Assembly (NCBI GenBank): GCA_036689235.1
Contig: CP144769.1
Coordinates: forward strand, 1-32,000
DNA: 32,000 nt
Origin: Candidatus Saccharimonadota bacterium
Lineage (GTDB): Bacteria; Pseudomonadota; Gammaproteobacteria; Enterobacterales; Enterobacteriaceae
Direction of reading: 5' to 3'
The translations under genes were made by a program, and so were the position numbers. The notes under the pieces are model-generated. The model saw only the letters and a program-made list of their open reading frames with translations. It was not told the DNA's origin and searched no databases. Position 1 is the stretch's first letter; each line of letters starts with the position of its first letter. Below, piece by piece: positions 1 to 32,000 of this stretch.

Positions 1-728
1 GAAAAATGATTTTAAATAAATATTTTTTTTTAAAACCTAAATATATAATATTTATTTTTGATTATAATAGAAAAAATTTTAGAAATAAAATTTATAGTAA
101 TTATAAAAAAAATCGTAAATTAATTTCTTTAAATTTACTAAAATATATAAATTTAATAAAAAATAAATTAAATAATTGAGGTATAAATTATTTTACTATA
201 CCTTATGTTGAAGGGGATGATGTAATAGGAACATTAGTAAAAAAAATAAAAAATAAAAAAAAATATAAAATATATATATTATCTTGTGATAAAGATTTAT
301 TACAATTAATAAATAAAAATATATATATGTTGGTTAAAAAAAATAAAATATTTAATAGAAGAAAAGTATTTAAAAAATATGGAATATATCCTAAATTATT
401 TAAAGATATGTTAATATTATGTGGAGATAAAAGTGATAATATACCAGGAATAAATGGAATAGGAATAAAAACAGCATCTTTATTATTAAATAATATAGGT
501 AATATAAAAAATATATATAAAAATTTAAATAAAATAAAAAAATTAAAAATAAAAAATTATTTAAATATAATAAAAAATTTAAAATATAATTATAGTAATA
601 TAAGTATATGAAATAGTTTGATATCTTTAAAAACTAATATTAAAATTAATTTAAGATTAAAAAAATTTATAGTAAATATAAGATTATTAATTAATATTTT
701 AAATAAAATTAATTTATTAAAAATATAA
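1..728 (+). CDS. polA: DNA polymerase I, 5'-3' exonuclease domain only (5' end lies outside the window); it stops where the Klenow part would begin
   Basis: Frame-3 translation gives ...YVEGDDVIGTL...LSCDKDLLQL...LCGDKSDNIPGINGIGIKTASLLL...LISLKTNIKINL...LLINILNKINLLKI*. This is colinear with E. coli PolA residues ~60-320 (FEN and H3TH motifs). Track ORF 327..611 is extended on both sides by reading in-frame TGA at 177-179 and 609-611 as Trp. TAA stop at 726-728. Confidence 0.8.
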
Positions 729-794
729 ATAATTATTAAAATTTTATTTTTATAATAAATATATTTTATATTAATAAAAAATAGATTATTTTAA

Positions 795-1493
795 ATGATA
801 ATAATTAGAAATAATATAATATTTAAAAAATGTATTTTATGTAAAGCTTTTATTTTAAGAAATAAAGAAATTTATATTAAAAAAAATAAAATTAAAAAAG
901 AAAATATTAATAATGAAATAAATTATTTTATAAAAATATATAAGAAAACAGTTAATCAATTCAATAAAATTAAATTTTTATTATCTAAAAAAATTAAAAA
1001 AATTTTTTGTAAGAAATATAAAATAATATTAAAAAAAAATATATTTAAAAAAAATATAATTAATTTCATTAAAAATAAAAAAATATATTCTGATTTTTCT
1101 ATTAAATATATTATAGATAAATATATTAATAATATAAAAAAAATAGATAATAATTTTTTAAGAGAAAAAATTAATATTTTTTTAGATATTAAAAAAAGAT
1201 TATTATATAATTTATATAATATAAAATTTATAAATTTTAATTTTTTAAATTATATAAAAGATAAAATTATTATTATTAGTAATGATATATTTTTTTCTCA
1301 AATTATTAAATTCAATTTTAATAAAATTATTGGTTTTATTATTGAATTAGGTAATAAAAATTCAATTAATTATTTATTTTTAAAATCTTTAAATTTAATT
1401 AATATTATAAATATTAAAAAAATTACAAAAAATATTTATAATAATGATTCTATAATAATTAATAAAAATAATATTTATATTAATTATTTATAA
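795..1493 (+). pseudogene. ptsI: Truncated PTS enzyme I: N-terminal EIN domain only, with the phospho-acceptor His replaced (open 232-codon frame; probably a remnant)
   Basis: Near-ungapped colinearity with E. coli EI residues 1-249. Examples: NFLREKINIFLDIKKRLLYNL vs [21 protein letters not shown], and KIIGFIIELGNKNSINYLFLKSLNL vs [25 protein letters not shown]. It ends at the EIN/EIC boundary, and no EIC sequence lies downstream before tRNA-Phe. The codon aligned to His189 is ATT (1365-1367). Confidence 0.6.
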
Positions 1494-1548
1494 TAAATTA
1501 AATATTTAAATAAAATAATATTATATTATTTTTTTATTATATAATATT

Positions 1549-1621
1549 TGCCCAGAGGCGGAATTGAACCACCGACACGAGGATTTTCAGTCCTCTGCTC
1601 TACCAACTGAGCTATCTGGGC
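1549..1621 (-). tRNA. pheV: tRNA-Phe (anticodon GAA)
   Basis: The reverse complement GCCCAGATAGCTCAGTTGGTAGAGCAGAGGACTGAAAATCCTCGTGTCGGTGGTTCAATTCCGCCTCTGGGCA folds as a cloverleaf and closely matches E. coli tRNA-Phe. CCA is not encoded. Confidence 0.95.
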
Positions 1622-1968
1622 CTTTTTATATTTATTTTATTATTTATTTAAAAAAAAAAAAAATATAAATTCATTTAATTTTTATTTTTAAACTATTATA
1701 ATAATAATATTTTATATTATTAATAATATTAATACAAGATTTAAAAAATAATTATTTATATTTAAGTTATATTAATAATAATATTATTATTATTTTTTAT
1801 ATATATTTATAATAATTTTTAATTAATTAATATAATAATTTTAATATAATATATAATTTATATTTAAATTCAAAATTTTTAATTTATTAATAATTAGTTA
1901 TTAATTTTATTTATATTAATAAATTTATATTATTTTATCAATAGTATATAAATAAGTAGGAGTTTTTA

Positions 1969-29004: not shown

Positions 29005-29934
29005 ATGTATAAAAAAAATGTTTTTTGTATTTTAGGTCCTAGCGGTATAGGTAAAAGTTATATTTCTATAGAATTATGTAATTTACTGCCTATTGAAATT
29101 ATTAGTGTAGATTCTTCATTAATTTATAAATATTTAAATATAGGTACAGCTAAACCATCAAAAGATGAATTAAAAAAATATTCTCATAAATTAATTAGTA
29201 TAATAGATCCTAAAGAATATTATTCTGTAAATAATTTTTTTTATGATGCTAAAAATGAAATTAATATTATTTATAATAATAATAATATTCCATTATTAGT
29301 TGGTGGTACAATGATGTATTATAATGTTTTATTTAATGGTTTATATAATTTACCTAAAAGTAATTTAAATATAAGAAATTATATAAATCTATTATTTAAA
29401 AATTATGGTAAAAAATATATATATAATTTATTTAAAAAAATAGATTTATCATCATTTCAAAAAATACATTATAATGATAAATATAGAATGATTAGAAATT
29501 TAGAAATATATTTTATTACTGGTAAAAATATTACTTATTTAAAAAAAAAAAAAAAAAAAAAGTTAGATTGTATATTTCATAAAATTATTATTTTACCTTA
29601 TAATAAAAATAATTTATTTAATTCTATAAAAAATAGATTTTATAAAATGTTAAAATTAGGTTTTAAAGAAGAAGTTTTATTTTTATATAATAGAGGTGAT
29701 TTAAATATAAAAATGCCTTCTATAAAATCTATAGGTTATAAACAAATGTGATTATATTTTCAAAATAAAATTTCTTATAATGAAATGATAAATTATACTA
29801 TTAATAGTAATATTTTTTTAATTAAAAAACAAATTACTTGATTAAAAAAATGATTAGATTCTTATATAATAGTATTAGATAATTATAGTAATTGTATTAA
29901 AAAAATATATAATTATATTAATAAGTTTATATAA
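29005..29934 (+). CDS. miaA: tRNA dimethylallyltransferase MiaA
   Basis: It has the P-loop ILGPSGIGKSYISIEL and VDSSLIYKYLNIGTAKPS. The frame continues through three TGA codons: IGYKQMW (29749-51), KKQITWLKKW... These match the E. coli conserved IGYRQMW and KRQITWLRGW. TAA at 29932-29934. Confidence 0.93.
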
Positions 29935-29962
29935 ATAATAAATAGGATATTTTAATTTTAAT

Positions 29963-31225
29963 GTGAATGAAAATTTAGCTATATATATATATAAAAAATA
30001 TATTAATTTAATTGAAAAAAAAGAATTTAAAAAATTAATTTTATCATTAGGTATAAAAAAATTTAAATATATTAATATTAAAATAAATATTCCTAATAAT
30101 AAATTTTTTTTTGGTAAAGGAAAAATATTAGAATTAAAAAATATTTTTTTAAAAAATAAATATAAATTATTATTAATAAATATTAATTTAAAATATTCTC
30201 AAGAATATAATATAAAAAAAATATTAAATTGTAAAATTTTAAATAAAACTAATATTATATTAAATATTTTTAAAAAAAGAGCTAATACTAATTATGGGAA
30301 ATTACAAGTTAAATTAGCTTGTTTAAAATATTTAAGTACTCGTTTAATAAATAGATGGACTCATTTAGAAAGACAAAAAGGTGGTATAAAATTTATATCT
30401 GGTCCTGGTGAAAAACAAATAGAAATAGATAGAAGAATTATAAAAAAAAAAATAAAAATTATTAATTTTAAATTAAAAAAAAATATTTTTCAAAGAAATA
30501 ATAGTGAAAAATTAAGAAATAGATTTAATATACCTAAAATATCTTTAGTAGGATATACTAATTCAGGTAAATCAACTTTATTTAATTTATTAACTAATAG
30601 TAATAATTATAATAAAAATAATTTTTTTTCAACTTTAGATGTATATATAAAAAAAATAGTTTTTTTTAAATTTAAATATAATATTTTATTATCTGATACT
30701 ATAGGATTTTTAAAAAATTTACCTAAAAGTATATTAGAAGCTTTTAAAAGTACTTTAGATGAAATTAATAAATCAAAACTTATATTACATATTATTGATA
30801 TTTCTAATATATATTTTAATAATAATATTAATATAGTAAATAATATTTTATCTGATATAAATATTTTTAATATACCTGTAGTATTAGTTATGAATAAAAT
30901 TGATAAAATAAAAAATTGTAATAAAGGAATATATTTTAATAAAAATAATATACCTTATAAAATTTTAATTTCTGCTAAAAAGAAAATAGGTATAAATTAT
31001 ATATATGATATTATTAATTTTTATTTTTTTAATTCTATGAAAGTATATAAAATTATATTTTGTTTTAATTTTATTAAAATAATTAAAAAGGAGATATATA
31101 AGAATAGTTTTATTTTAAATGAATGAAATTATAATAATAAAAAATATTGTATTAGTATAATATGTAAAAAAAAATATATTTTAAATTTAATTAATAAATA
31201 TTCATTTATAAAAATAATAAGTTAA
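29963..31225 (+). CDS. hflX: GTPase HflX
   Basis: GKLQVKLACLKYLSTRLINRWTHLERQKGGI..GPGEKQIEIDRR is the HflX N-domain. GTPase motifs are G1 GYTNSGKSTLFN, G3 DTIGF and G4 NKID. The start is GTG. TGA 31124-31126 aligns with the Trp of E. coli EKEW. The frame ends at TAA 31223-31225. Trp in RWTHLE is encoded by TGG. Confidence 0.92.
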
Positions 31226-31228
31226 TTT

Positions 31229-31996
31229 ATGAAAAAATTTTTTTATGGTATAAATACAGTTAAAAATTTAATTTTATATAAAAAATTTTATATTAATAAA
31301 ATATTTTTATGTGTTAATAAAAATAATATAAGATTATTAAAACTTAAAAAAATAATTATTGAAAATAAAATTTGTTTAGAAATTTTAAATAAATATGTTT
31401 TTAATAAAAAATTTAAGAAATTTAATTTTATTCATCAAGGTATAATAGCTTTAGTAAAAAATAATATATTTTTTAATAATAAAAATAAATTATTAAATAT
31501 TATTAAAAATAAAAATAAATTTTTTTTAATATTAGATAATATAAATAGTCCTTATAATTTAGGTTCTTGTATAAGAACTTCTGTAGCTGCTAATATAGAT
31601 TGTATTATAATAAGTAAAAATAATTCAGTTTCTATAGAAAATAATATAGTTCATAAAATTTCTACTGGTTCAATATATAAAATATTTATTTTTCAAGTAA
31701 ATTCTATAAGTAATATAATTAATTTATTAAAATTATATAAAATTAAAATAATAGGAACATGTACAGAAAGTAATAATAATAATAATTTATATAATATTAA
31801 TTTCAATTATTATAATTCTTGTGCATTAATATTAGGTTCTGAAAAAATTGGAATGAAAAATTCCTTAAAAAAAAAATGTGATTTTTTAATAAATATACCA
31901 ATATTTAATATTAATTCATTAAATATTTCTGTTGCTTACGGTATAATTATTTTTGAAATTTTACGTAAAAAAAAAATAAAAAATAAATTAATTTAA
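31229..31996 (+). CDS. rlmB: 23S rRNA Gm2251 2'-O-methyltransferase RlmB (SpoU/TrmH family)
   Basis: FYGINTVKNLI...IHQGIIALVK...FFLILDNINSPYNLGSCIRT...ALILGSEKIGMKNSLKKKCDFLINIP...SLNISVAYGIIIFE is colinear with E. coli RlmB. Confidence 0.88.
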   Translation: MKKFFYGINTVKNLILYKKFYINKIFLCVNKNNIRLLKLKKIIIENKICLEILNKYVFNKKFKKFNFIHQGIIALVKNNIFFNNKNKLLNIIKNKNKFFLILDNINSPYNLGSCIRTSVAANIDCIIISKNNSVSIENNIVHKISTGSIYKIFIFQVNSISNIINLLKLYKIKIIGTCTESNNNNNLYNINFNYYNSCALILGSEKIGMKNSLKKKCDFLINIPIFNINSLNISVAYGIIIFEILRKKKIKNKLI

Positions 31997-32000
31997 TATA

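Follow-up and report, generated by a model that had tools for sequence, protein, structure and literature searches.

We analysed a 32,000-nucleotide stretch of DNA, the window (positions 1 to 32,000 of the forward strand of contig CP144769.1, assembly GCA_036689235.1), in which the codon UGA specifies tryptophan. UGA has nearly fully replaced UGG as the tryptophan codon, and only UAA and UAG end genes among the 35 genes examined in the window and upstream of it. The explanation that best fits the data as a whole, and one in which we have high confidence, is that the window is a piece of the chromosome of 'Candidatus Stammera capleta', where UGA encodes tryptophan by a completed switch. An earlier note on this DNA had proposed UGA as a tryptophan sense codon in a tiny Enterobacterales-like symbiont, and the alignments at tryptophan columns, the upstream gene valS and the lack of TGA terminators all support this. 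The reassignment in the window is real and was rightly interpreted, but it has been published for the lineage since 2017 and hence is not new; the novelty that the note implied falls away because the lineage is Stammera, a case missing from its list of known ones. Its proposal of an acquisition separate from those in Mycoplasmatales, Hodgkinia, Zinderia and Nasuia is supported.

In-frame TGA codons in the window

Thirty protein genes were delimited in the window under the rule that only TAA and TAG are stops; rpsR, between rpsF and rplI, was seen in the frame translation and is untabulated. Twenty in-frame TGA codons are spread over 11 of the 30 genes. E. coli K-12 orthologues from six chromosomal regions were aligned semi-globally with the window proteins, TGA being masked as X. 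An E. coli tryptophan column lies under 15 of the 20 TGA, while tryptophan makes up 41 of the 7543 aligned columns (binomial P = 1.6e-30), so that the earlier claim of TGA mostly on tryptophans conserved in E. coli holds under alignment. The genes and their TGA codons are as follows.

6..728, plus strand: polA (5'-3' exonuclease domain only); TGA at 177-179 and 609-611, on E. coli Met and Ser
8350..8790, minus strand: smpB; TGA at 8689-8691 and 8452-8454, both on E. coli Trp, with TGA at both in four Stammera relatives
10857..12578, minus strand: infB (truncated IF-2); TGA at 11373-11375, on E. coli Ser
12599..13633, minus strand: nusA; TGA at 12803-12805, on E. coli Trp, with TGA in 5/5 relatives
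14203..15984, minus strand: ftsH; TGA at 15961-63, 15871-73, 15670-72, 15370-72 and 14470-72
16005..16610, minus strand: rlmE (stop-to-stop frame); TGA at 16530-32 and 16443-45, on E. coli Trp (RAW, GGW), with TGA in 5/5 relatives
21359..21760, plus strand: rplM; TGA at 21374-21376, on E. coli Trp (DWY)
22242..22574, plus strand: rpsF; TGA at 22362-22364, on E. coli Trp
28494..28955, plus strand: tsaE; TGA at 28818-28820, on E. coli Trp (VEWP)
29005..29934, plus strand: miaA (tRNA A37 isopentenyltransferase); TGA at 29749-51, 29839-41 and 29851-53, all on E. coli Trp
29963..31225, plus strand: hflX; TGA at 31124-26 and TGG at 30356-58, both on E. coli Trp

Every TGA coordinate in the earlier note is an in-frame TGA of the gene named, and its tallies need small corrections. 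It spoke of at least 12 genes with TGA and listed 11, the number counted here, and gave three TGA in ftsH, where there are five. Its three TGA in miaA are present, but the one at 29749-51 is the tryptophan of QMW and not, as stated, that of GW; the others start at 29839 and 29851.

None of the 30 genes ends in TGA: the terminal codons are 27 TAA and 3 TAG, as the earlier note had said of the genes it delimited. Frame 0 of the window genes contains no internal TAA or TAG, and the other two frames contain hundreds. The note also held that TGG is still used for tryptophan, and this is so at a single codon, the sole in-frame TGG of the window (hflX 30356-30358), which aligns with an E. coli tryptophan. 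The 41 E. coli tryptophan columns correspond here to 15 TGA, one TGG and 25 replacements by AT-rich codons (TTA, AAA, ATT, TTT and others), indicating that tryptophan itself is being purged as well as recoded. Tryptophan accounts for 21 of 7898 codons (0.27%) over all coding sequences of the window. A role for 3' context was rejected, as A follows 5 of the 20 TGA against a background of 53%, with no enrichment.

FtsH meets its first TGA at codon 8, yet is 52% identical to E. coli FtsH over 587 residues; three of its five TGA are on E. coli tryptophans, and those three are TGA in 5/5 relatives, while that at 15871-73 is on an E. coli Gln and is TCA, TTA or ATG in relatives. The column of the rpsF codon 22362-22364 reads TGA, TGA, TGG and TTA in relatives, and the occurrence of both TGA and TGG points to an interchange of the two there. 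At the infB codon 11373-11375, two relatives (L009 and L012) have TGA and the others ATA or TTT. The polA exonuclease domain is 32% identical to the N-terminus of E. coli PolA, and a public 240-residue gene call with the Pfam domain 5_3_exonuc spans both TGA. Other public gene calls on this contig also run across the TGAs, for example those for SmpB (146 residues), NusA (344 residues) and IF-2 (573 residues). Annotation with the standard code breaks about one-third of the window genes (11/30), as the earlier note foresaw, and translation table 4, which the public calls use, is needed.

Several of these genes have further features. PolA has shrunk to its exonuclease domain of about 240 residues, compared with 928 in E. 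coli, and IF-2 is cut to 573 residues with a low-complexity poly-Asn/Lys insert (NNKNNKNNKNNNNNNNNNNN). ATG, GTG and TTG are all missing from the stop-to-stop frame of rlmE, whose translation presumably begins near codons 7-9 with ATA, ATT or TTA. In the relative L012, nusA codon 135 has changed from GGA, the codon of the others, to TGA.

Source of the window

Stammera, a gammaproteobacterium, is an extracellular foregut symbiont of Cassidinae (tortoise) leaf beetles; its backbone is Enterobacterales-like and its genome measures about 0.24 Mb. Published genomes range from 0.22 to 0.34 Mb, with a guanine plus cytosine (GC) content of 13.9-20.4%. The five best NusA loci in a scan with one genome per species are all titled 'Candidatus Stammera capleta', at 60-86% identity. 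Proteins identical to those of the window were found on a contig of 239,864 bp, a size within the published range. The GC content of the window is 19% including ribosomal RNA (rRNA); it is about 40% in the rRNA operon and 9-19% in those 2-kb bins that contain no rRNA gene, save for one bin spanning groL, which reaches 29%. The gene order efp-nifU-trnW-trnI-HIT-proS is common to Stammera neighbourhoods of the EF-P gene.

GroEL of the window is identical to the copy on contig JADDOK010000001.1 (149,319 bp) of assembly GCA_015142155.1 and to that on contigs from run SRR23946950. The window as a whole is 100% identical to Logan contigs of this run and 99.4-99.98% identical to the NCBI contig of GCA_015142155.1. 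We conclude that the window strain is the GCA_015142155.1 strain or a near-identical re-assembly of it, and one more host-specific strain of Stammera. AT-only tandem repeats lie at 9632-9796, between the genes for a transfer RNA (tRNA), tRNA-Met, and truB, and include 11 copies of AAAAATAAT at 9696-9795. The indel differences between the window and the NCBI assembly fall in these repeats; downstream of them identity drops to only 99.4%, so the two are not the same sequence.

The code change in this lineage is well documented. Stammera capleta stands in Table 1 of the Codetta study, among known bacterial reassignments, as UGA from stop to W, with citation of Salem et al. 2017 (PMC8629427). Manzano-Marin et al. 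2023 list it in their Table 2 with prfB, the gene for release factor 2 (RF2), absent, a trnW that reads UGG (anticodon CCA) and 15.4% GC, report UGA in 159 of 255 coding sequences (62%), and count it as one of at least four independent endosymbiont origins of recoding (PMC10540940). The 50-genome study of García-Lozano et al. 2023/24 used table 4 for annotation, 'as described by Salem et al.'. A 2026 gTranslate preprint describes a basal clade of Stammera with code 11 and a retained prfB, reports that prfB is absent from the majority of Stammera genomes, and finds no tRNA-Trp(UCA) in any of them.

Upstream genes and Stammera relatives

The sequence covered for this genome comprises the window, 7.7 kb upstream of it (locus L007) and 1.1 kb downstream (locus L025), about 40 kb of some 240 kb. 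On the same contig upstream, valS contains 19 in-frame TGA, 18 of them on E. coli tryptophans, and efp and mnmG add three more; all five upstream genes end in TAA. Over the window and the upstream genes together the ratio of TGA to TGG is 42:1, with no TGA terminator in 35 genes, and in the window and valS 33 of 39 TGA sites fall on an E. coli tryptophan and only one on a glycine. The tryptophan columns of nusA, ftsH and rlmE (five relatives) and of smpB are conserved as TGA in Stammera relatives.

The efp neighbourhoods of eight further Stammera lineages were retrieved via EF-P homologues. Seven of the eight show 32-41 TGA and 0-1 TGG per approximately 3000 codons where counted; locus totals over the recoded lineages are 22-41 TGA and 0-1 TGG. 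The eighth, L018 (GCA_036689325.1, CP144793.1; 785-10510), has 0 TGA and 37 TGG in 2762 codons, indicating the standard code. Its valS carries TGG at 19 E. coli tryptophan columns, 18-19 of which are TGA in the recoded lineages. This lineage fits the basal code-11 clade of the gTranslate preprint. It has a somewhat elevated local GC content (18.7%) and lies on a contig of 303 kb.

tRNA-Trp and the decoding of UGA

A single tRNA-Trp gene was found on the contig, at L007 1199-1273, which is 6.5 kb upstream of the window. Its anticodon is CCA, and no tRNA with anticodon UCA is present in the roughly 40 kb of this genome read. The earlier note had allowed for CCA with a change in the D-arm, and such a change is found: position 24 is A, where E. 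coli has G. Anticodon CCA occurs in all nine Stammera tRNA-Trp genes compared (L007, L018-L023, L028 and L029), as does, in the ARAGORN cloverleaves, a U11-A24 pair in the D-stem, which is U11.G24 in E. coli. In all eight recoded lineages the anticodon stem contains a G30.U40 wobble and the D-loop has 9 nucleotides; in the standard-code lineage the pair is G30-C40, as in E. coli, and the D-loop has 7 nucleotides. The 27:43 pair is A-U (G.U in L021), giving five anticodon-stem pairs in all, one of them G30.U40 in recoded lineages. A 4-bp anticodon stem of the Blastocrithidia/Zinderia type was rejected on this ground, in agreement with the published classification of the Stammera tRNA-Trp as having a 5-bp stem (PMC13092985). 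The gene adjoins that for tRNA-Ile(GAU), between HIT and nifU-like genes; in the E. coli rrnC operon it follows tRNA-Asp.

These features suggest how UGA might be read. With RF2 absent, as the literature reports for most recoded Stammera, nothing would compete for UGA, and tRNA-Trp(CCA) would read it by mismatched C34:A pairing with the third base of the codon. The U11-A24 pair, of the type found in the Hirsh UGA suppressor of E. coli, which is G24A in trpT (PMC11805395), probably assists, and the G30.U40 wobble would weaken the anticodon stem. Extreme AT mutation pressure could then drive TGG to TGA throughout the genome. A further contribution may come from i6A37, made by the retained MiaA if, as seems likely, this enzyme acts on tRNA-Trp. 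The modification i6A37 promotes reading of UGA by tRNA-Trp, and the Stammera tRNA-Trp carries the A36-A37-A38 motif.

From the gene comparisons one may tentatively propose a two-step route, which we regard as possible but doubtful: an ancestral U11-A24 pair would have been followed, on the branch that lost RF2 and recoded UGA, by the change of C40 to U that gives G30.U40 and by lengthening of the D-loop. Neither a comparison of the D-stem and anticodon stem in Stammera nor an account of UGA decoding by a tRNA-Trp(CCA) that has a 5-bp stem was found in the literature searched. This comparison of the tRNA body is the only fresh element of the present work, and we offer it as a hypothesis and a mechanistic lead.

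Alternative explanations

Several observations weigh against a completed switch of UGA to tryptophan that involves the body of the tRNA. Five of the 20 TGA in the window are off E. coli tryptophans, on Met and Ser in the polA exonuclease, on Ser in infB, and on Gln and Gly in ftsH. The last of these, at 15370-72 (codon 205), falls on a conserved glycine of the AAA motif KAIAGEAKV, where four relatives have GGA; if this TGA is real, the strain has tryptophan at a normally invariant FtsH glycine. The same TGA is found in Logan contig L024, which is 100% identical to the window and probably shares reads with it. Some code-4 Stammera assemblies contain a prfB (gTranslate preprint). As for the tRNA, the U11-A24 pair is present in the standard-code lineage too, so that A24 cannot alone cause recoding and is at most a pre-adaptation, and the correlation of G30.U40 with recoding represents one phylogenetic split, effectively n = 1.

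An explanation that dispenses with the tRNA body is that C34 of tRNA-Trp is edited or modified post-transcriptionally to a U-like base, the D-stem and anticodon-stem features being drift. About 95% of tryptophan codons are UGA but the only tRNA gene is cognate for UGG, which is odd for simple near-cognate reading, and C34-to-U editing of tRNA-Trp does occur in kinetoplastid mitochondria. However, we know of no bacterial enzyme for C34-to-U editing, and there is little space for such an enzyme in a genome of 0.24 Mb. Moreover, in E. coli tRNA-Trp such changes as U11-A24 and G30.U40 are known to increase C:A wobble reading (PMC13092985, PMC11805395), and we consider editing of C34 improbable.

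We think it very unlikely that the code is mixed or transitional, as in Providencia siddallii PSAC, with UGA read as tryptophan within genes, RF2 kept and some UGA stops elsewhere. The prfB of some code-4 assemblies would suit such a state, and only about one-sixth of this genome was covered. However, TGA terminates 0 of 35 genes and the 42:1 ratio of TGA to TGG indicates a completed switch, whereas UGA occurs in only 20% of PSAC genes (PMC10540940).

Pseudogenes do build up in tiny symbiont genomes, and under table 11, 11 of the 30 window genes look broken; the TGAs might accordingly be genuine stops in a decaying genome. This is hardly credible, as TGA falls on tryptophan columns far above chance, homology continues at an unchanged level beyond each TGA, and the same TGA positions recur in lineages whose proteins share only 60-86% identity. 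Frame 0 also lacks any TAA or TAG, and the affected genes are essential ones: ftsH, nusA, infB, rplM, rpsF and valS, the last with 19 TGA. The Trp-column statistics and the conservation across lineages likewise exclude sequencing error as the source of the TGAs.

That UGA encodes another amino acid, namely glycine (code 25), cysteine or selenocysteine, might be argued from the ftsH TGA on a conserved glycine (GGA in relatives) and from the nusA TGA of L012 where others have GGA, but it has next to no chance of being right: 33 of 39 TGA are on tryptophan and one on glycine, no UCA-anticodon tRNA was found in the 40 kb read and none is reported in Stammera (gTranslate preprint), and GGA to TGA is a single G-to-T change, as expected under AT pressure.

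rRNA, gene content and gene order

The window contains a single rRNA operon in the order 16S, tRNA-Glu, 23S, 5S, tRNA-Asp, together with a transfer-messenger RNA (tmRNA) gene and seven tRNA genes. The rRNA genes are:

23495-25063, plus strand: 16S rRNA (Rfam SSU, 1526 bits; 85.7% identical to E. coli rrsC)
25224-28157: 23S rRNA
28185-28300: 5S rRNA

The extent that the earlier note gave for 16S and 23S together (23495-28156) was right. The 16S decoding centre is the same as in E. coli, with identical 530 loop, helix 34 including C1054, and 1400/1500 regions. UGA suppression by rRNA was rejected on account of this identity.

The Enterobacterales-like gene order that the earlier note claimed is borne out by blocks collinear with E. 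coli at 3.306-3.334 Mb, 3.378-3.401 Mb and 4.392-4.427 Mb, save for deletions and one inversion. The groups rplU-rpmA, rlmE-ftsH, secG-leuU and nusA-infB-rbfA-truB follow the order of the 3.306-3.334 Mb block, with genes deleted and rpsO-pnp-deaD inverted. Further E. coli-like blocks are mreBCD, tldD, rplM-rpsI and rpsF-rpsR-rplI, and the arrangement of tRNA-Gly(GCC) followed by tsaE, miaA, hflX and rlmB is that of E. coli. At 28185-28491, tRNA-Gly(GCC) and tsaE come immediately after 5S rRNA and tRNA-Asp; the junction looks like the end of an E. coli rrnC-type operon, minus trpT, fused to the glyVXY-tsaE region. An open reading frame of 232 residues at 795-1493 (plus strand) has sub-threshold matches to PF05524 (PEP-utilising N-terminal, 23.5 bits) and PF00391 (mobile domain, 13.5 bits), and looks like a truncated, degenerate remnant of PtsI or PtsP.

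Comparison with known systems

The window strain shows no difference of substance from 'Ca. Stammera capleta' with code 4, which shares UGA as tryptophan, a tRNA-Trp with anticodon CCA only, a GC content of 14-20%, a genome size between 0.22 and 0.34 Mb, and micro-synteny like that of E. coli. Since Stammera is a textbook independent origin of UGA as tryptophan, there is nothing new in the recoding itself. Mycoplasmatales, Hodgkinia and Nasuia also read UGA as tryptophan and have lost RF2, but use a cognate tRNA-Trp(UCA), which Stammera lacks. Such a tRNA is typical though not universal for code 4; none was found in the roughly 40 kb read here, and its absence is on record for both Stammera and Zinderia.

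'Candidatus Zinderia insecticola', a betaproteobacterial symbiont of spittlebugs, resembles Stammera in reading UGA as tryptophan with tRNA-Trp(CCA) only, in the loss of prfB and in its extremely low GC content. In its tRNA-Trp, however, the top pair of the anticodon stem is unpaired, leaving 4 bp, whereas the Stammera stem has five pairs, and Zinderia belongs to another class and is of independent origin. Within the Enterobacterales, the leech symbiont 'Candidatus Providencia siddallii' PSAC likewise reads UGA as tryptophan by a tRNA-Trp(CCA) (PMC10540940). It differs in being at an early stage: prfB is kept and itself contains UGA, UGA is found in 20% of genes, and several genes need UGA as a stop. 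The window, with 20 TGA and one TGG, shows a switch that is all but complete.

The Hirsh suppressor of E. coli (su9, trpT G24A) shares the CCA anticodon, the U11-A24 pair and the reading of UGA as tryptophan. This laboratory mutant has to compete with RF2 and suppresses partially, whereas in Stammera A24 is the natural state throughout the genus and occurs alongside the standard code in the basal lineage. If the tRNA route outlined above is true, it would be a natural, fixed counterpart of such laboratory suppressors and, after the UCA anticodon and the 4-bp anticodon stem, a third way for bacteria to read UGA. As Stammera holds both standard-code and recoded lineages, all with a CCA tRNA-Trp, it offers a natural system for asking which changes in the tRNA body permit the takeover of a stop codon, the candidates being A24, G30.U40 and the length of the D-loop.

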